A stretch of DNA of 64,000 bases from Clostridia bacterium (GCA_045545475.1 JAZQAZ010000030.1:64001-128000), one strand, 5' to 3'; shown: positions 11,727 to 24,148, numbered from the stretch's first letter. Notes: generated by a model not told the origin, from the letters alone. Numbers and translations are program-made.

Positions 11727-13280
11727 ATGAGTATATTAAACGCAGAAAACATAAGCCACAGCTTTGGCGGAAGGCAGATTTTGGAGGATGCCAGCTTCCG
11801 TCTGCTTAAGGGCGAACACATCGGACTAATCGGTGCCAACGGCGAAGGAAAGTCCACCTTTCTTAAAATAATAACAGGCGAACTTACCCCAGAAGAGGGA
11901 AAGGTTGAGTGGTGCCGTCACATAACCTACGGATATTTAGACCAGTATTCCACCCTGGAGAAGGGCAAAACCATTATGGACATTTTAAGGGGTGCCTTTT
12001 CCCACCTTTCCGACCTTGAAGCTGAAATGATTGCCATATATGACAAAATGGCGGACGTAGCAGACGATGAAATGGCAAATCTTATGGAGGAGGTCGGCAC
12101 AATTCAGGAAATCCTGGACTCCTCCGGCTATTACACCATTGACACAAAAATCGTCGAGTACGCCAACGGCCTCGGCTTGTCGGAAATAGGCCTCGACAAG
12201 GATGTAACGGAGCTTTCCGGCGGTCAGCGTGCAAAGGTTTTGCTTGCCAAGGTGCTTCTTGAAAACCCCATGATTTTAATTTTGGACGAGCCCACAAACT
12301 TCCTTGACGAAAACCATATCCATTGGCTTACGGACTTTTTGCAGAACTATGAAAACGCATTTATATTAGTGTCCCACGATATGCCCTTCCTGACCAAAGT
12401 TACAAACGTAATCTATCACCTTGAAAACACGGTTTTGACAAGATACAAAGGTACATACGATGACTTTTTAAGAATGTACGACTTGAAGAAGCAGCAGGTT
12501 GAGCAGGCATTTAAGAAACAGCAGAAGAAAATTGCCGACCTTGAGGACTTTGTTGCAAGAAACAAGGCACGAGCCGCAACCGCAACATTGGCTCGTTCAA
12601 GGCAGAGAGAGCTTGACAAGATGGAGAAAATTACCATCGCTCCCGAAAAGATACGCCCCACCTTCTCCTTTAAGTCAGACCGTACACCCGGCAAGGTGGT
12701 AATTTCCGCTAAAAACCTTGTCATAGGCTATGACTCTCCCCTTTCCAAAAAGATTGACATTGAGATTGAGCGAAACAAAAAAATCGCCATAAAAGGCGTT
12801 AACGGTCTGGGAAAATCCACACTTTTAAAAACATTGCTTAAGCTTATCCCTCCCATCGAGGGTGATATTCAGCACGACCAGTTTATAAACGTGGGCTATT
12901 TTGAGCAGGAGGAAATTGCCTCCGACAAAACTGCCCTTGCCGAATTCTGGGACACCTTCCCCTCCCTTACCAACGCCGAAGCGAGAGCCGCCCTTGCAAA
13001 GTGCGGTCTTACCACCGACCATATCACAAGTCAGATGAAGGTATTGTCGGGCGGTGAAAACGCCAAGGTACGCCTTTGTAAAATTATGCAGAGCCCTGCA
13101 AATATTTTAGTTTTGGACGAGCCGACAAACCATCTTGACATTATGGCAAAGGAAGAGCTTGCCAAGGCTATAAAGGAATTTAAGGGAACAGTTTTACTTG
13201 TGTGCCACGAAGCGGAATTTTACGAGGATATTGTGGACGAGGTATGGGACGTTTCCTCCTGGAGCACAAAGATAGTTTAA
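11727..13280 (+). CDS. ABC-F family ATPase (YfmM-like ribosome-associated factor)
   Basis: Two NBDs (GANGEGKST/LSGGQ/LDEPTN and GVNGLGKST/LSGGE/LDEPTNHLD), helical linker, no TM domain. Confidence 0.92.
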   Translation: MSILNAENISHSFGGRQILEDASFRLLKGEHIGLIGANGEGKSTFLKIITGELTPEEGKVEWCRHITYGYLDQYSTLEKGKTIMDILRGAFSHLSDLEAEMIAIYDKMADVADDEMANLMEEVGTIQEILDSSGYYTIDTKIVEYANGLGLSEIGLDKDVTELSGGQRAKVLLAKVLLENPMILILDEPTNFLDENHIHWLTDFLQNYENAFILVSHDMPFLTKVTNVIYHLENTVLTRYKGTYDDFLRMYDLKKQQVEQAFKKQQKKIADLEDFVARNKARAATATLARSRQRELDKMEKITIAPEKIRPTFSFKSDRTPGKVVISAKNLVIGYDSPLSKKIDIEIERNKKIAIKGVNGLGKSTLLKTLLKLIPPIEGDIQHDQFINVGYFEQEEIASDKTALAEFWDTFPSLTNAEARAALAKCGLTTDHITSQMKVLSGGENAKVRLCKIMQSPANILVLDEPTNHLDIMAKEELAKAIKEFKGTVLLVCHEAEFYEDIVDEVWDVSSWSTKIV

Positions 13281-13286
13281 GAATAC

Positions 13287-13318
13287 TAGTAAAAGAGCAG
13301 TTGTATGCTCTTTTACTA
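13287..13318 (+). terminator. Intrinsic terminator
   Basis: TAGTAAAAGAGCA-loop-TGCTCTTTTACTA. Confidence 0.75.
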
Positions 13319-13333
13319 TAAACAACATTTAAC

Positions 13334-13362
13334 TTGACAAGTTTAGATTTTTATGGTATAAT
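13334..13362 (+). promoter_or_regulatory. Perfect-consensus SigA promoter upstream of the cassette array
   Basis: TTGACA-17 nt-TATAAT with TG extended -10. Confidence 0.85.
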
Positions 13363-13514
13363 TTATTATACGCAGGCGGGCTTTACCGTACTGCGGATTT
13401 TTGCCGCCATATTTTAGCCCTATAAGTTAACAAAGGATGTGATGCCTATGATTGTACTATGACCGCACAGGAAAATTAATAAAATCAAATTAATATAAAG
13501 GAGGACTAAACAAT

Positions 13515-14612
13515 ATGTTTAACAACAAATATTTTAACGATTATAATTCAATGGACGATGAGGAAAAAACCGCCATACGTTATGGTGCTGAAGGAAGAGA
13601 CCTAAGCGATGTTATACGCTCGAGTCATAAAAAAATCAGCGACCCCAATAAAGTTTTCGATGCGTGGGTTAAGGGTGAGGGCATGCGTAAAACGGGAGAA
13701 TCAAAAGCCTTTCTCGACGAAATTGAAAAGTCGGAAATGGATGAACTTGAAAAATCATTATCAAAGCGGGATAAAACTGATGCAAACGGAATTTCTGCCT
13801 CTCCTATCAAAGATATATGGGGAAATGATTTAGCAAATGACACCTATGAAAAGGCAGAAAATACTGAAGATAATGCTTCAATAGAAAAAATGCCTTTTAT
13901 AACCGATTTTGATAGCACCGCAAAAGCACAAGCCTTGCCTCATATAAACAATTTATTGCCAAAGGACAAGGACTATGATATAATGTATCTAAGCGATGAT
14001 GCGGATTCGGCAGGCACTACTTCTTCCGGTCAGACAAATCAAAATGCATCGGAATCCGAAAGTAGTACCACTTTCGTTACCTATGGGTATTCCGACGAAA
14101 ATGTTGTAGGCGGAATTCAATTAAGACTTAATGAACTCGGCTACACAGATGTTGACATCACAGGAACCTTTGACGCAAGTACCGAAGCTGCTATAAAGGA
14201 GTTTCAGGAAGAGCGAGAGCTTCCGGTAACAGGTGTTCTTGACGATGCGACCAAAGCCGAGATGGGCTTTTCCGACGATTATTCCGTTTCCAGAAAAGGT
14301 GAAAACGCAACACCCTGGCACGCGCCATATTCTCCGCCCTTTAATATGGAGGACTATAAGCGAGAACAGGAAAGGCTAAAGAGAGAAAAAGAAGAAGCCT
14401 TAAAAGCAAAAGAAGATGAGGAAAATCTGCCTTTTTATAAGAAGTTAATCCTACCTATCCTTTTGAGGGAAACATATGAGGGTACTGCCCCTACAGCATC
14501 AGATCTGACGGAAGAAAATAAATTGCCGGAAAATTCCAACGAAGGAGTTTTGCAAGACGGAAATGTTATCGACGGAGCCAACTATCCTTATCCTGTTGAC
14601 GGATATAATTAA
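13515..14612 (+). CDS. Peptidoglycan-binding-domain protein with exchangeable C-terminus (candidate polymorphic effector)
   Basis: PG_binding_1-like segment VGGIQLRLNELGY..TGTFDASTEAAIKEFQEERELPVTGVLDDATKAEM; no signal peptide; 3' part is repeated downstream; RBS AAGGAGG. Confidence 0.7.
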   Translation: MFNNKYFNDYNSMDDEEKTAIRYGAEGRDLSDVIRSSHKKISDPNKVFDAWVKGEGMRKTGESKAFLDEIEKSEMDELEKSLSKRDKTDANGISASPIKDIWGNDLANDTYEKAENTEDNASIEKMPFITDFDSTAKAQALPHINNLLPKDKDYDIMYLSDDADSAGTTSSGQTNQNASESESSTTFVTYGYSDENVVGGIQLRLNELGYTDVDITGTFDASTEAAIKEFQEERELPVTGVLDDATKAEMGFSDDYSVSRKGENATPWHAPYSPPFNMEDYKREQERLKREKEEALKAKEDEENLPFYKKLILPILLRETYEGTAPTASDLTEENKLPENSNEGVLQDGNVIDGANYPYPVDGYN

Positions 14613-14634
14613 TAAGGAGGAGTTATAATTGAAA

Positions 14635-15573
14635 ATGAAAAAGCTTGTTATTTGGAGATTTATACTGCCACTTATATTCGCCGCTATTGCAACTATTTTG
14701 GCGTACGGGATAGTCTGCTTTGACCAAAGATGGTCAAACGGCAAAAATGATATTTACAAGTTGTCGCTTTTCATAGCCATAGCCATAATTTCGGTTATAT
14801 ATTTTTTCGTGGGGAAAAAATATAATGATGTAAATGTAAAAAAGCTTTTTCTTATTTTTTCAATTTGGACTGCAGTAATATCTTCAGTTTCTTTCCTTAC
14901 TAAAAATTCTACGATACTTCTTTTAAGCGGAATACACTATTATTATTTCGGAGCCATTTTAGAAATATTCCCTGCGTCAACTCCCATTATCATTCTTATA
15001 TCGGGTTTTATTTCAGAAATGCTTGTTCTTACAACCGGCATCGTTTACGGAAGATTATCCAAGCCCGAGAAGAAATACACTTTCACATTCTATAAAATAT
15101 CTTCTCTGCTATTGTGGATTCTCTCTATGCTCTTTTTCTACTCAATAACTCTTATTTTCTTAAAAATCCCCTATACAGTACTTAAACAAAACATCGCACT
15201 TGAATCAGGACGTATAATTTCAGGCACTCTTTGTTGCCTTTGGTACTTTTTTGCCGGAATAAAAACCTCAAAGGGCAATTTATTGAAAACCCTTTCAGCC
15301 ATTTCTCTATGGAACGTACTTGCTGTAATATTAAGATTTGTAACCACCTCCTTTATCCCCCTTTATCTCAGCGGAGGCTATATATCCCTTTTGAGTGCAG
15401 TCTCTGTTTTTACCAACTCAAAAGCTATAATTTATTTATCAGCTTTTGCAGTAGAACTCGCCTTAATTTCATCAGGTGTACTTTTTGGACGGCATCTTGA
15501 TAAAAAGAAAGCACCGTCCTTCAAAAATGATGAAGAAAAATGGATGCTTACAAGAGAGCACAGGAAAGGCTAA
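14635..15573 (+). CDS. Polytopic membrane protein, two ~140-aa repeats (candidate immunity protein 1)
   Basis: About 8 hydrophobic segments; paralogous to 15829, 17601 and 18091; RBS AAGGAGG. Confidence 0.7.
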   Translation: MKKLVIWRFILPLIFAAIATILAYGIVCFDQRWSNGKNDIYKLSLFIAIAIISVIYFFVGKKYNDVNVKKLFLIFSIWTAVISSVSFLTKNSTILLLSGIHYYYFGAILEIFPASTPIIILISGFISEMLVLTTGIVYGRLSKPEKKYTFTFYKISSLLLWILSMLFFYSITLIFLKIPYTVLKQNIALESGRIISGTLCCLWYFFAGIKTSKGNLLKTLSAISLWNVLAVILRFVTTSFIPLYLSGGYISLLSAVSVFTNSKAIIYLSAFAVELALISSGVLFGRHLDKKKAPSFKNDEEKWMLTREHRKG

Positions 15574-15797
15574 AGCGAGAAAAAGAAGAAGCCTTAAAAG
15601 CAAAAGAAGAGGAAGAAAATCTGCCCTTATATAAGAAGTTACTCCTCCCTTTTCTTTCGAGGATAATATACGAGGGTACTGCTCCCACAGCATCAGATCT
15701 GACGGAAGACAATAAGTTGCCCGAAAATCCCAACGAAGGAGTTTTGCAAGACGGCAATGTTATCGACGGAGCAAACTATCCTTATCCTGTTAACTGA
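15540..15797 (+). pseudogene. Orphan C-terminal cassette 1 of the 13515 protein
   Basis: Near-identical to 14346..14612 (QERLKREKEEALKAKE...GANYPYPV); lacks the N-terminus and PG-binding domain and has no clear RBS. Confidence 0.8.
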
Positions 15798-15828
15798 CAT
15801 AATCAATAATAAGGAGATGTAATCAAAA

Positions 15829-16719
15829 ATGAAAAAGCTTGTTATTATACGCCTTGCTTCATTTGTTGCCTGGTTTCTTGGAACAGAAATCACTGCAATC
15901 GCTTTACTATTATGCAGAATTAATCCGGATGACATAATGAATAATTGGTGGAATTTAAATTTTTGTTATGCATCCGGAATGATAGCATTATACCTTTTTT
16001 ATTTCTTTGCAGGAAAATTTTTTCACGATATCAGCATAAGAAAGCTAATTCCAATATTTTTCATTTGGACGCTGCTTTCCATTTTGTCTGATGCTTTTTT
16101 AGCAAAGTATCTTATTTTTTCAAGCGGTTCATTTATTTTGTTCTCAGCAGATGTCTTAACAATGGGCTTTACCGATAACCGCTATCTCGCATACCCGATA
16201 GGCTTTTTCATTGAAATTTTCGTCCTTGTTACGGGGATTTTGCTTGGCAGAATAACATCCGGAAAAATCTCCGGAGGAAACTTTGTCTATCCGGCAAAAT
16301 TCTTTGCTGTAATTATAGCCACTATGACGGCGCGTTTTGTCAGACACATAGTTGTTGCCGTGTCTGACAATCCGGATATTAATTATCTTAAAGATGCAGC
16401 ACTTGATTTAGGCTGGGTTATTTCGCTTCTCGCAGTTGCCGTATGGTATTTTTATATCGGATATAAATGCCATAATACAAACTTAAAAATTGTTATTCCG
16501 ATTTACTTTATATGGAATGCAATCGGCGTGGCATTATGGCGTATTTCAGGAAACTGGAATGCAGTTATGCTATGCGGAGGATACACAGGCTTTTTTAACG
16601 GAATAAGAGTTTGCACTCCCGATAGATTTCTTTGGCTTGTATGTATCGGAGCTTTTTTACTTGAAGCAACTTTCCTGACGGCAGGCGTGATTTTAAGGCG
16701 GTACAAAAGAAAAAATTAG
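15829..16719 (+). CDS. Polytopic membrane protein, two repeats (candidate immunity protein 2)
   Basis: Two copies of YF-x-x-G-x-K...W...GGY/GSF...F-x-x-E-x6-G; RBS AAGGAG. Confidence 0.7.
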   Translation: MKKLVIIRLASFVAWFLGTEITAIALLLCRINPDDIMNNWWNLNFCYASGMIALYLFYFFAGKFFHDISIRKLIPIFFIWTLLSILSDAFLAKYLIFSSGSFILFSADVLTMGFTDNRYLAYPIGFFIEIFVLVTGILLGRITSGKISGGNFVYPAKFFAVIIATMTARFVRHIVVAVSDNPDINYLKDAALDLGWVISLLAVAVWYFYIGYKCHNTNLKIVIPIYFIWNAIGVALWRISGNWNAVMLCGGYTGFFNGIRVCTPDRFLWLVCIGAFLLEATFLTAGVILRRYKRKN

Positions 16720-16740
16720 TATATATGGCGTGGAAATTCT

Positions 16741-17181
16741 ATGTTAAAAATACTTTCTTTACATTTAGGACTCGGAATAATATCGTTAGCCGTAAATTAT
16801 CTTTTAGTACCAAATCCCACAAGATGGGTGCTTTGCGTCATATTCAGCATTTTATATTTTATTGCGGGAGTTTTCAGTACTAAAAAAACAGTCCTTGCAG
16901 CTGCACCGATTACATCCCTTCTTCCCTTTTTATCAAGATTAATACAGATTATTCTCGGCAGCACTATGTTCTCACATAAAATCATATCCGACCTTACCGT
17001 TATCCCCTACGGCGGAGCCTATGCTTTTACTTTAGCAACAGTTGACCTACTTTATACAGGTCACGCTTTTTGGGCGTGGTTCATCAGAATTTTGGGTTAT
17101 TTATCCCCCGGCATTTTAATTTTAGTCGGTTACTTGTTAAAAAAGCTTCTCGCAACAAAAAGTGAAACTTCTGCTATGTAA
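16741..17181 (+). CDS. Four-TM membrane protein, divergent single repeat (orphan immunity-like)
   Basis: LYFIAG and YGGAY resemble the family motif; hydrophobic. Confidence 0.55.
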   Translation: MLKILSLHLGLGIISLAVNYLLVPNPTRWVLCVIFSILYFIAGVFSTKKTVLAAAPITSLLPFLSRLIQIILGSTMFSHKIISDLTVIPYGGAYAFTLATVDLLYTGHAFWAWFIRILGYLSPGILILVGYLLKKLLATKSETSAM

Positions 17182-17203
17182 AGAAAATCCAATAATACTC
17201 TTG

Positions 17204-17576
17204 GCTTCCGGTAACAGGTGTTCTTGACGATGCGACCAAAGCCGAGATGGGCTTTTCCGACGATTATTCCGTTTCCAGAAAAGGCGAAAACGCAACCCCG
17301 TGGCACGTTCCCGAATCACCGCCTTTTAACATGGAAGCATACAAGAGAAAACAAGAAGGACTAAAGCGCGAGCAGGAAGTAGCGAAAGCTGCAAAAGAAG
17401 AGGAAGAAAACTTTTCCCTTTGGGCATGGTTACTAAATTTACCCTTATCCGTATTATCACTTATACTTGGCGAAGATGCCGTCAGCGGTATGAACCCCGG
17501 AACAGAGGTGGCAGAAGATCCTTTACAAGAAGAGGATTTATGGAAAAACGGTACTATGAATGATTATAATAATTAG
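17204..17576 (+). pseudogene. Orphan C-terminal cassette 2 with a different tip
   Basis: 17204..17284 is an exact 81-bp copy of 14219..14299. Homology runs to EEEEN and then switches to an unrelated tail (FSLWAWLLNLPLSVLSLILG...). Confidence 0.8.
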
Positions 17577-17600
17577 TATTAATTAAAAAGAGGGATAGAT

Positions 17601-18023
17601 GTGAAAAAGCTTATTATATGGAGATTACTGATACTTCCAATCGGTTTCGCAGTAGAATGTGCGGCAGCGACCTTTGCCGTATATATTTTAAAAATAACTT
17701 CAAAAACAGGGCTTATTGTAGGTGCTGCAGCAGGAATACTAGCCGCAGCTGTTTTATACTTTCTTGCAGGATTTAAAAATCACAAAGCAAGTATCCCGAA
17801 AATATCCTTGTGGTATTTTTTATGGACTGTTACAGTTCTTGTGTTTGCTTCATTTTTTAATTCTCCCATTTTAGGCCCAGTTGCAGGCGGATATATTTTA
17901 TTTTCTCAAATAAACTATTTTCTGCCGGCAGGTTCGGAAATTTTATCCAGCACTTTAGCTTTCGCATTGGAGATTTCCTTTTTATCTTTCGGGATATTTA
18001 CCGGCAGATATGCAGATAAATAA
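17601..18023 (+). CDS. Four-TM membrane protein, single repeat (candidate immunity protein for cassette 2)
   Basis: N-terminus MKKLIIWR like 14635; LYFLAGFK, AGGY and AFALE..GIFTGR motifs. Confidence 0.7.
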   Translation: MKKLIIWRLLILPIGFAVECAAATFAVYILKITSKTGLIVGAAAGILAAAVLYFLAGFKNHKASIPKISLWYFLWTVTVLVFASFFNSPILGPVAGGYILFSQINYFLPAGSEILSSTLAFALEISFLSFGIFTGRYADK

Positions 18024-18034
18024 CAATAGATAAT

Positions 18035-18078
18035 GCCAACTATCCTTATCCTGTAGATGGATATAACTAATAAGGAGG
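18035..18078 (+). repeat. Remnant of the effector 3' end plus RBS (ANYPYPVDGYN*)
   Basis: GCCAACTATCCTTATCCTGT-x-GA-x-GGATATAA-x-TAATAAGGAGG matches 14577..14620. Confidence 0.85.
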
Positions 18079-18090
18079 ATGTAATTGGAG

Positions 18091-18981
18091 ATGAAAAAAT
18101 TAGTATTTGCACGTTTTATAATCTATGTTGCATGGATCATCCCCACAATCCTTATGCTACTATTACTAACACTATTCGATCAGAAGTATCAGTTAGATAT
18201 GGAAGCTTTCTATTCTCTTACAGTTCGTCTGTCAATAGCCTTAGTTTCTGTATTATATTTTTTTATGGGGAAAAAGTATTATGATGTAAATCTCAAAAAG
18301 CTTTTACTTATTTTTTCTATATGGTCCATAATAATATCTTTGTCAGTGCTTCTTACCAGTCAACCCCTGCTCCTATTCTTAAGCGGTGCACTTTATTGTT
18401 ATACTAACTTAATTCCGGTGACATTTCCGATAACATCTCCTGCGCTGTGCCTTATACTTGGATTTGCTTTCGAGATGATTATCCTTATGAGCGGAATAAT
18501 ATACGGCAGACTTTCCAACAAATACAGCAATCGTCCATTTTTTACTTATTACAAAATATCTGCTTTGTTATTGTGGTTTATCTCTATGCTCTTTTTCTAC
18601 TCAATAACTCTTATTTTCTTAAAAATCCCCTATACAGTACTTAAACAAAACATCGCACTTGAATCAGGACGTATAATTTCAGGTGCTCTTTGTTGCCTTT
18701 GGTACTTTTTTGCCGGAATAAAAACCTCAAAGGGCAATTTATTGAAAACCCTTTCAGCCATTTCTCTATGGAACGTACTTGCTGTAATATTAAGATTTGT
18801 AAGCACCTCCTTTATCCCCCTTTATCTCAGCGGAGGCTATATATCCATTTTGAGTGCTGTATCAGTGTTTACCGACTCAAAGCCCATAATTTATCTATCA
18901 GCTTTTGCAGTAGAACTCGCCTTAATTTCATCAGGTGTACTTTTAAGGCGGCATCTTGATAAAAAGAAAAAAATAATTTAA
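18091..18981 (+). CDS. Polytopic membrane protein, two repeats (candidate immunity protein); second half near-identical to 14635 gene
   Basis: 18581..18969 is a near-identical copy of 15122..15510. Confidence 0.72.
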   Translation: MKKLVFARFIIYVAWIIPTILMLLLLTLFDQKYQLDMEAFYSLTVRLSIALVSVLYFFMGKKYYDVNLKKLLLIFSIWSIIISLSVLLTSQPLLLFLSGALYCYTNLIPVTFPITSPALCLILGFAFEMIILMSGIIYGRLSNKYSNRPFFTYYKISALLLWFISMLFFYSITLIFLKIPYTVLKQNIALESGRIISGALCCLWYFFAGIKTSKGNLLKTLSAISLWNVLAVILRFVSTSFIPLYLSGGYISILSAVSVFTDSKPIIYLSAFAVELALISSGVLLRRHLDKKKKII

Positions 18982-18992
18982 GGAGAATTATC

Positions 18993-21194
18993 ATGAAACA
19001 AAATGAAGTTTTTGCTTCCGCCCTGTGGATTGGAAGCAACGATGATAATACCGATGCTTTTTACATACTCCGCGGAAAATTTTCTGTTTCAGAGGTTAAA
19101 AAGGCGACTTTACGCGTTTTAGGACTTGGCTTTTTCCATTGCTACATAAACGGACACCGGGTGGGTGATGATTTGTTTTTACCCCTCACTACGGACTATG
19201 AGCCCCGAAAAAACTTTCCGTCAGGCGAAATTTTATCGGGGCACAGAATTTATGTTCCCGAATATGACATAACCGATATGCTATGTGACGGCGAAAACGT
19301 AATCGCCATACATTTTGGCGGAGGCTGGTATACCTTTAATCATCCAATAGAAAACTTTAAAGATTCCGATATGCGATTCGGTGCACCCAAGGCTATATGG
19401 CGCATTTTCGGGGACGATGAAAACGGAAGCTTTGAAGCAGTATCAAGCGAAGAAGACATTCTTCTTCCCGGCTTTATAAAAAATTATTTTTTTCCACGAA
19501 GGGAATATCAGGACTTTTCCTTAAGCTCGGAAGATGCCTTTTTGCCAAATTTTGACGATTCAGCTTTCCCGAAGGCGAAGGCCGTAACGCCGCCCGACAC
19601 CACTTATCATTTTACAAGCTGTCCCAAAGACAAGGTGTGTGAAATTTTGCACCCGGAAAAGATTGCCGAAAACGAAGAATATACCTTGTACGACTGCGGC
19701 AAGAACACAACCGGCTATCCCGTAATTGAAATTACCCATCCCGAAAAGCAGGCTGTAAAGTGCATTTTTTCCGAGGAATTGTCCGGCAGTGCACTTGACG
19801 AAGGCTTTTCCCACTGGCAGGAATTTACCGTTATTTCCGACGGCAAAAAGCGCCTTGTCCATCCCCTTTTCACCTGGTTTGGCTTCCGTTATTTCGCCAT
19901 TTACGGAAAGGCAGAATTAAAATGTGTGGAGGTTATTCACTCGGATGTTACCGTTACCGGCGAATTTGAGTCGGACAACGAAATGCTTAACAAAATAAAC
20001 GAGCTTTTTATAAACACACAGCTTACCAATATGCACGGCGGTATCCCTTCGGACTGCCCTCACTTGGAACGTCGTGGCTATACCGGAGACGGTCAGCTTT
20101 GCTGCCACGCCGCAATGACCTTGCTTTCCGCAAAAGACTTTTACAGAAAATGGATTTACGACATATTTGACTGTCAGGACACTTTGACGGGCCATGTTCA
20201 GTACACCGCACCATACACCCATTCGGGCGGAGGTCCCGGCGGCTGGGGTTGTGCTATAATTGAAGTTCCATACCGCTATTATCTCCATTATGGAGAAACC
20301 GATGTTCTCACAGAATGCTACCCCGGGGTAAAACGATATTTTGACTATCTTGAAAGCCACTCGGAAAACAATCTTGTAATAGCGGACAAGGAAGGCGAAT
20401 GGTGCTTAGGCGACTGGTGCACCCCCACCTCTGTCACACTTCCTGCCCCCTTTGTAAACAATTATTTTTACATAAAGAGCTTGTACCGTGCCATCGAAAT
20501 TGCAAAAATTATCGGAAGCGAAGCGGACATCCCCCTTTTCGAGGAAAGAATTGAGATACGCAAAAAGGCGATAAAAAATGCTTATTTCAACCCCTGGGAC
20601 GGAAATTTCCTGGGCGGAGTTCAGGGGGCAAACGCCTTTGCCCTTGATATAGGTCTGGGAGATCACAGAACTTATCCCAATCTCCTTTCCCGATATGAAA
20701 AAATGGGCGAATTTGACACGGGTATTTTCGGAACGGATATTTTGATAAGGCTTCTTTTCCAGCGTGGCAACGGAGACCTTGCCGTTAAAATGCTTACATC
20801 AGGCGGCGTTCACTCATTTTCCGAAATGATTAAAAGAGGGGCTACCACCATCTGGGAATACTGGCCCGAGTCGCTCCGTAACCGCTCCCACAACCATCCC
20901 ATGTTCGGTGCTGTTACGGCTTATCTTTACGATTATCTCTTAGGCATCCGCCAGAAAGAAGGCTCTGCAGGCTATGAAAGCCTTATAATCGCTCCAGTAT
21001 TGGCAGAAGGCGTAAACTCCCTTTCAGGAAAAAGAGTTCTTCCGAAGGGCGAGGTTTTTGTTTCCTACGAAAAAGCGGACGGTAAGATCTCATTTATAAT
21101 AACCATCCCCGAAAATCAGGAGGCAGAATTCATTTTAAGAGAAAGCAAAGTGTCCCTTTCAGCGGGCGAAAACAAAATTACACTTGATTTATAA
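18993..21194 (+). CDS. GH78 alpha-L-rhamnosidase family glycoside hydrolase
   Basis: FTWFGFRY, IPSDCPHLERRGYTGDG, LGDW, GATTIWEYW and SHNHPMFG motifs. Confidence 0.92.
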   Translation: MKQNEVFASALWIGSNDDNTDAFYILRGKFSVSEVKKATLRVLGLGFFHCYINGHRVGDDLFLPLTTDYEPRKNFPSGEILSGHRIYVPEYDITDMLCDGENVIAIHFGGGWYTFNHPIENFKDSDMRFGAPKAIWRIFGDDENGSFEAVSSEEDILLPGFIKNYFFPRREYQDFSLSSEDAFLPNFDDSAFPKAKAVTPPDTTYHFTSCPKDKVCEILHPEKIAENEEYTLYDCGKNTTGYPVIEITHPEKQAVKCIFSEELSGSALDEGFSHWQEFTVISDGKKRLVHPLFTWFGFRYFAIYGKAELKCVEVIHSDVTVTGEFESDNEMLNKINELFINTQLTNMHGGIPSDCPHLERRGYTGDGQLCCHAAMTLLSAKDFYRKWIYDIFDCQDTLTGHVQYTAPYTHSGGGPGGWGCAIIEVPYRYYLHYGETDVLTECYPGVKRYFDYLESHSENNLVIADKEGEWCLGDWCTPTSVTLPAPFVNNYFYIKSLYRAIEIAKIIGSEADIPLFEERIEIRKKAIKNAYFNPWDGNFLGGVQGANAFALDIGLGDHRTYPNLLSRYEKMGEFDTGIFGTDILIRLLFQRGNGDLAVKMLTSGGVHSFSEMIKRGATTIWEYWPESLRNRSHNHPMFGAVTAYLYDYLLGIRQKEGSAGYESLIIAPVLAEGVNSLSGKRVLPKGEVFVSYEKADGKISFIITIPENQEAEFILRESKVSLSAGENKITLDL

Positions 21195-21958: not shown

Positions 21959-23008
21959 ATGAGTCTGGCAAAAATGCAGAAATTTGAATCAAGATCAATT
22001 TCTCCCGAAAACTTTACCGGTGAAAAGGGAAAAGGCGGAATGGCTTTGACGGGAACAGGCGAAAACGCCGCCCGTGATCTTGGTCAGGGCTGGAAGGTTT
22101 CCCCATATATAGTGATAAAGCCCGGCGAAACCTTTACCCTTGGTGCAATGGACGGTCCCGGCATAATAAAGCACATATGGATAACAGACAGCTGTCCCAA
22201 AAACAGAATGCTTGTTATAAGAATGTACTGGGACGGAAGCGATACACCCTCTGTCGAAGCGCCTCTGGGTGACTTTTTCGCATCTGCCGAATATCAGCGC
22301 TATGCTCCGCTTGCATCAATTCCCGTTTGCGTAAATCCCAAAAAGGGGCTTAACTGCTACTGGGATATGCCCTTTTATAAAAACTGCCGTATAACCCTTG
22401 AAAATCTTCACTCGGAAGATGTTTCTGTATATTATCAGATTGACTATGTTGTAGGCGACATCCCAGAGGACTACGGCTATTTCCACGCCCAGTTCAGACG
22501 CGTAAATCCCCTTCCCTACAAGGAATGCTACACAATCCTTGACAATGTATCAGGCAACGGTCACTATGTAGGTACATATATGTTCTGGGGCGTAAACAAC
22601 ACAGGCTGGTGGGGCGAAGGCGAAATCAAGTTTTATCTTGACGGCGACAAGGATTTCCCCACAATCTGCGGCACCGGCACAGAGGACTATTTCTGCGGCT
22701 CCTGGAACTTTGATATAGGCGGAAAATATCAGGAATTCTGCACCCCCTATTCAGGTATGCCCAAGGTTATAAGACCGGACGGGCTTTACAGCTCGCAGCA
22801 GCGTTTTTCACTTTACAGATGGCACATAAACGATCCTGTCTACTTTAAGAAGGATATAAAGGTTACCATTCAGGCTTTGGGCTGGAGAAGCAACAAGCGC
22901 TACCTTCCCCTTCAGGATGACATTTCATCCGTTGCCTTCTGGTATCAGGACAGCATTTGCAAAACCTTCCCGCCCTTCCCTTCAGTAGATGAGCTTGAAA
23001 TTATATAA
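21959..23008 (+). CDS. GH172 (DUF2961) glycoside hydrolase
   Basis: SISPENFTGEKGKGG, GPGIIKHIW, PSVEAPLGDFF, WWGEGE, GTGTEDYF and YRWH motifs. Confidence 0.92.
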   Translation: MSLAKMQKFESRSISPENFTGEKGKGGMALTGTGENAARDLGQGWKVSPYIVIKPGETFTLGAMDGPGIIKHIWITDSCPKNRMLVIRMYWDGSDTPSVEAPLGDFFASAEYQRYAPLASIPVCVNPKKGLNCYWDMPFYKNCRITLENLHSEDVSVYYQIDYVVGDIPEDYGYFHAQFRRVNPLPYKECYTILDNVSGNGHYVGTYMFWGVNNTGWWGEGEIKFYLDGDKDFPTICGTGTEDYFCGSWNFDIGGKYQEFCTPYSGMPKVIRPDGLYSSQQRFSLYRWHINDPVYFKKDIKVTIQALGWRSNKRYLPLQDDISSVAFWYQDSICKTFPPFPSVDELEII

Positions 23009-23036
23009 AAAAGTTGAGGCAATGCCTCAACTTTTT
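23008..23036 (+). terminator. Intrinsic terminator
   Basis: AAAAAGTTGAGGCA-A-TGCCTCAACTTTTT. Confidence 0.85.
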
Positions 23037-23199
23037 ATTTTTTACCTCATCCGTAAAAACTGTTCGATATCCTTTAGAACCCTATTCATAAATAGGCTCA
23101 ATCACGCGGTTTTAAGCAGAGTTTGACCTTTTCATTCTATACCAAACGCGTGATAGTTATAAAATTCCTATACACAAATAACAAGTTTCGACAAAATTA

Positions 23200-23228
23200 T
23201 TGTCATTTTACTCTTTCAGTGCTATAAT
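23200..23228 (+). promoter_or_regulatory. SigA-type promoter
   Basis: TTGTCA-17 nt-TATAAT with TG extended -10. Confidence 0.7.
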
Positions 23229-23294
23229 AGAGATAATCATCAGTTATTCGCGAAATTTACAAACGCTGTTTTGAAAATATAAAATAGGAGGTAT

Positions 23295-23390
23295 ATGATG
23301 ATGAAGAAAACATTTAAGACTTTTTTGTATATTTTGTTGGCAATCGTAGCCTTTATCATAATTAGAGCTATGATAATCACAATCTTTTGA
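23295..23390 (+). CDS. Unannotated 31-aa single-TM peptide (MMMKKTFKTFLYILLAIVAFIIIRAMIITIF)
   Basis: Strong RBS AGGAGGT, basic N-terminus plus hydrophobic helix; the stop sits just before the next gene's RBS. Confidence 0.65.
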   Translation: MMMKKTFKTFLYILLAIVAFIIIRAMIITIF

Positions 23391-23407
23391 TAAGAAGGAG
23401 AATCGTT

Positions 23408-24148
23408 ATGGAAACAAAAGTAGAAGAAAAAACAGAAGAAAAGGTTGTTGAACACAAGGACACATCCAAAGGAGGAAGCATTTCAATCAAAATCAAATAT
23501 AAAACTCTTCTTATACTCTCTATACCTTTGATATTTTTTATTATCGGATTTGTATCGGGATTTAAGATAAATAATCGCTCAATCATCGATCCTGACTCGG
23601 CAATTGTTGACAATGAGATAATCAATATCACTCCAGACATCGATGTCACATATTTAAATACTGCTTTAAAAGAAGCAAGCGAGTTAACCACAGCAAAACT
23701 AAAAATCAATGGTTTAGTGGATTTCAAAGACACGGGTATTATCATCTTAAACAAATCTGATTTCACAATGAAATATACTGCAGATATAAGTGCTGGTATA
23801 GATATGTCAAAGGTCGAAATTAAAAATGACGATATAGACCATGAAAATAAGAAAATAATTGTAGAGATTCCAAAAGCCATTGTATTCAAACCAAATGTTT
23901 ATCATGGCGATAAATACATAAAATTCTATGACGAAGAATTTGCTTTATTTAATGTCAATGAGAAAGAAGACCTTTCACGAGCATTAGCAATGGCAGAGAA
24001 AGATGCTGAAAATGAAGCCGTAGAAAATGGATTACTTGAATTAGCAGACAAGCAATCAGAAACATTAATAAAAGGTATTCTTTCAGATGCGGTAAGTCAA
24101 TTCGGATATACCATAGAAATCAAATATATTGACAAGGAGAAAAAGTGA
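23408..24148 (+). CDS. DUF4230-domain membrane-anchored protein
   Basis: N-terminal TM, ASELTT, I-x-AGID-x-S and IIVEIPKA motifs, C-terminal L-x-x-A-x-x-Q-x-E pattern; RBS AAGGAG. Confidence 0.8.
   Translation: METKVEEKTEEKVVEHKDTSKGGSISIKIKYKTLLILSIPLIFFIIGFVSGFKINNRSIIDPDSAIVDNEIINITPDIDVTYLNTALKEASELTTAKLKINGLVDFKDTGIIILNKSDFTMKYTADISAGIDMSKVEIKNDDIDHENKKIIVEIPKAIVFKPNVYHGDKYIKFYDEEFALFNVNEKEDLSRALAMAEKDAENEAVENGLLELADKQSETLIKGILSDAVSQFGYTIEIKYIDKEKK

Follow-up and report, generated by a model that had tools for sequence, protein, structure and literature searches.

Exchangeable C-terminal tips and reshuffled membrane-protein genes in a genus-restricted, polymorphic toxin/immunity-like locus of uncultured gut Clostridia

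Pore-forming colicins carry pore domains which are helical bundles of about 200 amino acids (aa), and their immunity proteins are membrane proteins with three to four transmembrane (TM) segments. Tox-ParB and MuF are listed among the polymorphic toxin systems by Zhang et al. 2012, and PGB1 (peptidoglycan-binding) domains are noted there in toxin polypeptides (PMC3482391). The C-terminus of Staphylococcus aureus EsxX is a short membrane-depolarising toxin which is neutralised by the polytopic ExiCD, and ExiCD genes are also found as orphan immunity genes (PMC12744356). TspA is a membrane-depolarising toxin of the S. aureus type VII secretion system (T7SS) with a polytopic membrane immunity protein, TsaI (PMC9484751). 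Little is known about the interbacterial weapons of the gut Clostridia, which are dominant and mostly uncultured; those described in Firmicutes rely largely on T7SS and LXG proteins. Here we analyse an array of genes and gene fragments on the plus strand of a 64,000-nt stretch of DNA from a Clostridia bacterium (GCA_045545475.1 JAZQAZ010000030.1:64001-128000), which we call the window. Its gene A encodes a peptidoglycan-binding (PGB) protein with an N-terminal domain (N-domain) and a C-terminal tip, and its M genes encode membrane proteins.

In this study, we describe how this locus is built, how far its family extends, how tips have been switched from strain to strain, how the N-domain has been fused to a known toxin cassette, and genomes which hold M genes only. 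Genetically, the locus shows every hallmark of a polymorphic toxin system, and its reshuffling is seen directly in metagenomes. Because it behaves genetically like a polymorphic toxin/immunity locus, and because the N-domain of its family has once captured a known toxin cassette, we cautiously favour a genus-restricted, bacteriocin-like system resembling polymorphic toxin/immunity loci, in which the carrier domain and the membrane immunity family would be new and the tips are short, amphipathic and acidic. If the tips prove toxic, the locus defines a new effector/immunity family, and one has to ask how a PG-binding protein without a leader exits a Gram-positive cell. If they do not, the locus illustrates clearly how cassettes are shuffled naturally in a recognition or envelope module.

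Tip exchange in the array

The array (13334-18981; Table 1) lies between an ABC-F ATPase gene (11727-13280) and a gene for a 733-aa protein (18993-21194), and comprises nine features: gene A, five M genes (M1 to M5) and three orphan fragments of the 3' end of A (f2, f3 and f4). All eight products have copies at the window locus only (tblastn, 2.74-Mb genome). A first-pass annotation, made from the sequence alone, had described a full gene behind a consensus SigA promoter, followed by a repeating pattern of 3'-end fragment and hydrophobic paralog. The open reading frames (ORFs) are as it described them, and the promoter agrees with the consensus throughout, including the TG extension. The order of fragment and paralog holds for f2, f3 and f4 but fails for M3, a weak family member with no tip ahead of it.

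The 3' end of A recurs in each fragment: 14343-14642 in f2 at 15537-15836 (87% identity over 300 nt), 14219-14425 in f3 at 17204-17410 (84% over 207 nt) and 14577-14621 in f4 at 18035-18079 (93% over 45 nt). The alignment with f3 begins with a homology arm (14219-14299 and 17204-17284) which had been reported as exact and is identical in 81/81 bases. M1 and M5 have in common a 300-nt block, 96% identical. The proposal that f2 is a variant tip did not hold, as its protein is 85% identical to A's own tip; the differences lie mostly within a short hydrophobic segment. The M1 frame (15472-15573) continues about 20 codons into f2, giving a C-terminal extension which the M1 ortholog of genome G002 has as well and M5 lacks.

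Right after the PGB domain, A carries a nearly invariant junction motif which takes in the recombination arm 14219-14299. The N-domains of the family are 42-64% identical to that of the window, with 23 invariant columns, and after the junction motif the 12 family proteins bear at least 7 tip types. Swapped C-termini, anticipated by the first-pass annotation for related genomes, are found in G003. There an A body 89% identical to that of the window (its 5' end lies off the contig) carries the window's orphan tip 2 and is followed by an M4-like (88%) and an M5-like (93%) gene. This arrangement is exactly what recombination across the 81-bp arm would produce. Tip 2 is also borne by the proteins P0003, P0005 and P0009, and in all four inspected genomes holding M4 (G000, G002, G003, G004) this gene follows tip 2. 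In G002, the order A(tip 1)-M1-[hybrid fragment]-M4 lies between the same flanking genes as in the window.

Further joints were found in metagenome contigs of three DNA runs from other studies (X1, X3, X8), matched at at least 88% likeness; only stretches with contig cover were interpreted. In these contigs f2, f3 or f4 continues the reading frame of an A body, and the M gene after it is the one that follows the fragment in the window. One 7,982-nt contig of X3 leads from the A body (14345->15540) to f2-M2-M3 and the downstream gene, and X1 is similar; in X8 the A body is joined both to tip 2-M4 (14398->17397) and to f4-M5 (14392->18029). M3 follows M5 in X8 and M2 in X1 and X3. Tip switching by recombination is thus real: some related genomes and contigs have A bodies which run in frame into orphan tips. 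The promoter and the N-domain have been lost repeatedly, in G002, X3 and X8, by a deletion of 13284-14087 which leaves about 103 other bases in their place, and X1 shows loose ends at the same two positions. The truncated remnant of PGB domain and tip still joins in tip exchange.

It is highly improbable that the array is an assembly artefact of collapsed or chimeric repeats. Repeat identity is 81-96% over stretches of up to about 750 nt, A-family genes break the assemblies of G007 and G009 (several lie at contig ends), and no single metagenome contig spans the whole window array. However, A-M1-f2 is present in G002, f2-M2-M3 in X1 and X3, and f3-M4-f4-M5 with the downstream gene in G003 and G004. 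All window junctions except M3->f3 (17137-17204) recur independently in other genomes or contigs.

Family range, toxin cassettes and leader RNA

A search of 5.8 billion proteins with full-length A gave 14 matches, 12 of them true family members, and the N-domain profile gave 9 in the same set. The M profile matched 8 sequences among 1.84 billion representatives and 12 loci among 185,579 species genomes, in five metagenome-assembled genomes titled Clostridia bacterium. No relatives were found with the M profile in viral contigs or with the N-domain profile in JGI metagenome contigs. Only six of 61 related genomes, all of one genus, have matches outside the PGB domain. M is present in 6/14 family genomes and the N-domain in 3/14; G002 (97% complete) and G004 (87%) hold M without the N-domain, and in G003 the contig ends within the A gene. 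The N-domain, the M family and the leader RNA described below are restricted to one genus of uncultured gut Clostridia. A surface check of the literature on Firmicutes PGB polymorphic toxins and on orphan or membrane immunity in Clostridia, supplements excluded, found no description of the A/M family.

The 1.8-Mb genome G007 has 7 matches to A and G009 has 5, several of them at contig ends. In both genomes A-M pairs occupy several unrelated chromosomal sites between housekeeping genes. Twelve A-family genes were inspected, two of which run off contig ends; M lies downstream in all ten assessable genes, directly in nine and after one intervening gene in one. Some members (P0011, P0015, P0016, L023) lack the PGB domain. 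The A-family gene of G009:C13 (L015 5227-6290) is split into overlapping ORFs of 99 aa and 259 aa, which is a frameshift or a sequencing error, and two ORFs of about 245 aa with similar N-termini lie just downstream of the M gene there.

The paralog P0017 of G007 combines the N-domain with a Gly/Ala-rich pre-toxin segment and ParB_N (30.3 bits, cut-off 26.3), which replace the short tip. ParB_N is the sole recognised toxin-type domain among the family tips. The pre-toxin and ParB cassette has 159 relatives (E <= 0.001), mostly stand-alone proteins of 186 aa; others are fused to Phage_Mu_F, RHS-annotated proteins or PGB repeats, and in some of them ParB gives way to Ntox50. In G007 and at 4/10 other Clostridia loci, the cassette is followed by a metallophosphoesterase-like gene (68-75% identical), for which immunity or a phage function are candidate roles. 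The order in G007 is the P0017 cassette, the metallophosphoesterase-like gene and M. A two-gene unit of pre-toxin with ParB (or another C-terminal domain) and a metallophosphoesterase-like gene of about 224 aa also occurs in distant Clostridia at 68-80% identity (Table 1), and in G009 the metallophosphoesterase-like gene stands alone between two M genes.

The promoter and the conserved leader are common to all six full-length A genes having upstream sequence. The -35 element sits in a 6-1-6 palindrome kept at other A loci; the same promoter and palindrome arms are present at five other A loci of G007 and G009. The leader of about 100-130 nt forms a 9-bp terminator-like hairpin with a U-run, followed by a mini-ORF starting ATG ATT GT (ATG-ATT-GTA-CTA-TGA in the window, 13448-13462). 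The hairpin contains one compensatory pair, A-U in 3 sequences and G-C in 3, and about 28 nt found in the 5' part of the other copies are missing from that of the window. A covariance model found 8 copies in 3/61 genomes, 6 of them directly upstream of an A gene and 2 at G009 contig ends where the downstream gene is unreadable. Rfam, searched with the window locus and four related loci, gave nothing relevant to the leader, which is a candidate new attenuator. Contigs of the RNA library X19 match 13292-13362, 13738-13932, 14259-14368, 16734-17110 and 17455-17622, which is no proof of transcription. A sporulation or coat protein was considered and set aside, given the housekeeping-type promoter and the lack of any other hint in that direction.

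The proteins A and M and their possible function

The N-domain of A comprises aa 1-112 (13515-13850), and PG_binding_1 lies at aa 200-250 (14112-14264; Pfam, E 7.9e-16). No other Pfam domain was found above the cut-off, and NCBIfam and PHROG matches are confined to PG_binding_1. In the AlphaFold2 model, calculated from an 18-row alignment, the N-domain is predicted to form five helices (residues 5-85; predicted local distance difference test, pLDDT, about 79-88) and is followed by a disordered linker (87-196). The C-terminal part is predicted as a charged helix (278-303), a short hydrophobic helix (307-316) and a disordered acidic tail. In a fold search against PDB representatives the PGB domain matched 5nm7 (Z 8.1, root-mean-square deviation 2.9, 62 aligned), and the best N-domain scores were at noise level (Z 4.0-5.0), several of them to winged-helix regulators. 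The ESM Atlas held no usable look-alike of the N-domain. The first-pass annotation had recognised neither N-domain nor tip, and neither matched a known family or fold in our searches. A 15-aa hydrophobic or amphipathic segment (mean Kyte-Doolittle hydropathy, KD, 0.33-1.97) and a subsequent tail of 34-64 aa with a net charge of -5 to -11 are present in 10/10 inspected C-termini of the family; hydropathy is TM-like over 19 residues in only two. Membrane toxins of the EsxX/TelE type have a conserved glycine zipper of GxxxG repeats in their toxic C-terminal region. By inspection, without a motif model, some tips of the A family are Gly-rich with i/i+4 glycines and tip 1 of the window is not.

M1, M2 and M5 consist of two tandem 4-TM units and M4 of one; M3, likewise of one unit, is only weakly related (E 0.0023 with the M profile in a search of 12 sequences). 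In the PrsW-peptidase-dependent toxin export of Zhang et al. 2012, an 8-TM PrsW peptidase domain with conserved motifs is fused to the N-terminus of the toxin. The longer M forms have eight TM segments and an internal 4+4 duplication, are encoded by a separate gene and did not match PrsW in Pfam (no profile-profile comparison was made). Nothing in Pfam, NCBIfam, PHROG or PADLOC matched M above the cut-off, and DUF443 was not matched in Pfam. The AlphaFold2 model of M (pLDDT 73) has eight long helices and some short ones, and its best match among PDB representatives (Z 6.7) is at the noise level for helical proteins. M2 met unnamed clusters only in the ESM Atlas, at or below 0.87. The first-pass annotation had not recognised the family of the membrane unit either. 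An alignment of 14 rows has 24 invariant columns, among them a Glu in the final TM of either unit and columns in loops rich in Lys/Arg; intramembrane Glu/Arg are kept. With the topology that we infer by the positive-inside rule, cytoplasmic segments vary less than outer ones (0.89 bits in 49 columns versus 1.86 bits in 79 columns; Mann-Whitney p 5e-11). The ratio of nonsynonymous to synonymous substitution (dN/dS; G000 versus G002 or G003) is 0.23-0.65 for M genes and 0.03-0.13 for flanking genes, i.e. M genes evolve faster than their neighbours. A predicted complex of M1 with residues 270-365 of A scored 0.27 (mark 0.32), which speaks neither for nor against binding. An endolysin/holin lysis cassette was rejected, since there is no catalytic domain, PHROG and Pfam matches cover the PGB domain only and the holin match of M is not significant (E 0.09).

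In the bacteriocin-like system that we favour, the constant helical N-domain of A would be a carrier or trafficking module, and PG_binding_1, where present (as it usually is), would hold A on the cell wall of a neighbour. The exchangeable tip, with its charged helix, hydrophobic or amphipathic helix and acidic tail, would act on the membrane, and the M protein encoded after each tip, with 4 or 2 x 4 TM, would be the membrane-embedded immunity protein. Homologous recombination in the junction and coiled-coil region would move orphan [tip + M] cassettes into the expressed gene or delete them. Export, toxicity, membrane target and cognate protection are inferred.

Several observations weigh against a bacteriocin-like system. 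The tips are only about 60-90 aa long, are largely predicted to be disordered, match no toxin family in Pfam or NCBIfam, and resemble each other as diverged homologs rather than as a set of unrelated toxin domains. The first-pass proposal of a polymorphic toxin/immunity locus stands in its architecture (swapped C-termini, a paralog with a toxin cassette, genomes with M only); its functional core, toxic tips with cognate immunity from M, is putative. Similarity of tips and of M proteins correlates weakly (Spearman 0.19, Mantel p 0.13, 10 modules), and tip 1 and f2 are about 85-86% identical, yet M1 and M2 share 27%. Co-variation of tip and M was rejected as proof of cognate pairing, being too weak and confounded by linkage; moreover, as the breakpoints lie upstream of the tips, the lasting adjacency of tip and M is not independent evidence of pairing. 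The invariant intramembrane Glu and the conserved cytoplasmic loops of M fit a conserved activity no less than they fit immunity. M is retained beside the ParB paralog despite the cassette's own downstream gene, so that the part of A served by M may be the N-domain and not the tip. Finally, the first 30 residues of A are hydrophilic (mean KD -1.34), so that A has no signal-peptide-like start; this agrees with the first-pass annotation, by hydropathy and not by a dedicated predictor. In the genomes G000, G002, G007 and G009, EssC stayed below the cut-off in all four, with FtsK-like matches, and WXG100 was found in none. Neither N-terminus hydropathy nor Pfam nor this T7SS search revealed a recognisable export or delivery route for the PG-binding A.

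Given the weak co-variation of tip and M, the short homologous tips, M beside ParB and the missing export route, three alternatives stay alive. M may mainly be the export or release partner of the leaderless A, a dedicated translocon or holin-like conduit which would recognise the conserved N-domain with its conserved cytoplasmic face; recombination would then have produced the arrays incidentally, unless M also served as immunity protein. We consider this unlikely, even though it would account for an extracytoplasmic-type PGB domain on a protein with neither a signal-peptide-like start nor a T7SS, and for M beside all types of A, including the ParB paralog with its own conserved downstream gene. 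The conserved cytoplasmic loops and intramembrane Glu/Arg of M would also fit, as would the correlation of N-domain and M similarity (rho 0.62, Mantel p 0.04, 7 modules). However, the M genes of G002 and G004 are intact although these genomes lack the N-domain altogether, five diverse M genes accompany one A gene in the window, single-unit forms of M exist, and M has no transporter or holin match by family or fold. With little probability as well, A and M might constitute a self-contained new monoderm delivery system, M being both translocon for A and specificity-bearing immunity protein or receptor for the tip, and the leader RNA switching the module. This would mean a new secretion route and a new membrane-toxin/immunity pairing in gut Clostridia.

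The homology of the tips also bears on the second alternative, a non-antagonistic envelope pair, serving for example as wall-to-membrane tether or, like IdsD/IdsE of Proteus, in kin recognition. Pressure from phages or the host would drive the diversity of its exposed surface parts, and the gene fragments would be left over from tandem duplication. In its favour, the tips are homologous variants and match no toxin family. The C-terminal part of A and the f3 tip are under purifying selection (dN/dS 0.15-0.22 in the same genome comparisons), and unequal crossing-over by itself yields repeats of [3' end + next gene]. We nevertheless regard an envelope pair as improbable: in one paralog the same N-domain bears a recognised toxin cassette, up to 7 matches are scattered over one 1.8-Mb genome, and M-only genomes and the frequent loss of promoter and N-domain better suit a costly weapon with retained immunity.

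The third alternative, an intracellular toxin-antitoxin or anti-phage abortive system with A as sensor and M as membrane effector, or the reverse, is very unlikely. A compact two-gene module with its own promoter and attenuator-like leader, present in multiple scattered copies, would suit such a system, and membrane proteins are common defence effectors. Against this, PADLOC gave no significant match (one row, M3, E 0.029), no phage or viral contig carries the module, orphan M arrays would be hazardous if M were toxic, and the PGB domain has no obvious cytoplasmic ligand.

Table 1. Coordinates of the array in the window and of related elements at other loci; leader copies are given together with their promoter
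Feature	Sequence	Position	Strand	Description
Promoter	window	13334..13362	+	TTGACA, 17 nt, TG-extended TATAAT; 12/12 consensus positions
5' leader	window	13363..13514	+	hairpin 13371-13395, U-run 13396-13402, GGA resembling a ribosome-binding site, mini-ORF 13448-13462
Gene A	window	13515..14612	+	365 aa, PG_binding_1
M1	window	14629..15573	+	314 aa, two 4-TM units; 3' end overlaps f2
f2	window	15537..15797	+	ORF 15540-15797; orphan copy of the last 85 codons of A
M2	window	15829..16719	+	296-aa M paralog, 27% identical to M1
M3	window	16741..17181	+	146 aa, single unit, divergent M-like; no tip fragment in front
f3	window	17204..17576	+	ORF 17247-17576; orphan, 81-bp arm 17204-17284, then tip type 2
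M4	window	17601..18023	+	140 aa, single-unit M
f4	window	18035..18078	+	remnant: last 11 codons of A, stop, ribosome-binding site
M5	window	18085..18981	+	298-aa M paralog, 67% identical to M1
Leader copy	window	13334-13514		
Leader copy	L016	5590-5823		
Leader copy	L018	6126-6359		
Leader copy	L023	4341-4574		
Leader copy	L015	4999-5232		
Leader copy	L020	10785-11020	-	
Two-gene unit	L020	9087-10760	-	
Two-gene unit	L017	7227-7907	-	
Two-gene unit	L037			
Two-gene unit	L038			
Two-gene unit	L041			
Two-gene unit	L042			

Elsewhere in the window, the G+C content of 23001-24000 is 0.31, compared with about 0.43 in the rest.

Comparison with known systems

The layout of the locus is of a known kind; the carrier domain, the tip, the membrane family, the leader RNA and the lack of a detected secretion system are new. 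As they are described in PMC3482391, CdiA-CT/CdiI, Rhs, MafB and LXG systems have in common with this locus a constant N-terminus, a variable C-terminus after a conserved junction, a small gene directly after it and orphan [tip + next gene] cassettes with homology arms. Cassettes are exchanged from strain to strain, immunity-like genes stand alone in some genomes, and one A paralog carries a cassette of the Tox-ParB type. In contrast, A has no FHA, RHS, LXG or MafB N-terminal domain in Pfam, its short tips look non-enzymatic and share homology among themselves, and the proteins encoded downstream form a new family of 2 x 4 TM. The MuF- and RHS-linked cassettes of gut Clostridia are related more directly, as P0017 carries such a cassette at 75-80% identity together with the same metallophosphoesterase-like gene. 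The gene A of the window lacks the cassette, so this link holds for the family only, and Pfam finds no MuF domain on A.

Like colicins, A is a modular leaderless protein, in which a wall- or receptor-binding part precedes a C-terminal part that in A would act on the membrane, and a small polytopic membrane protein, here putatively M, would be the immunity partner. The tips of A are far shorter than colicin pore domains, no lysis or release gene was identified at the locus, and the host is Gram-positive.

EsxX/ExiCD and TspA/TsaI would be the nearest functional analogies for A and M. Their LXG/T7SS export was not found here, no clear glycine zipper is evident in tip 1 by inspection, and no soluble partner resembling ExiAB was seen. 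The likeness lies in a carrier with a short C-terminal region, which is membrane-active in S. aureus and putatively so here, and, as far as these systems are described in PMC12744356 and PMC9484751, in nearby polytopic membrane proteins which occur in tandem non-identical copies and as orphans in non-producers.

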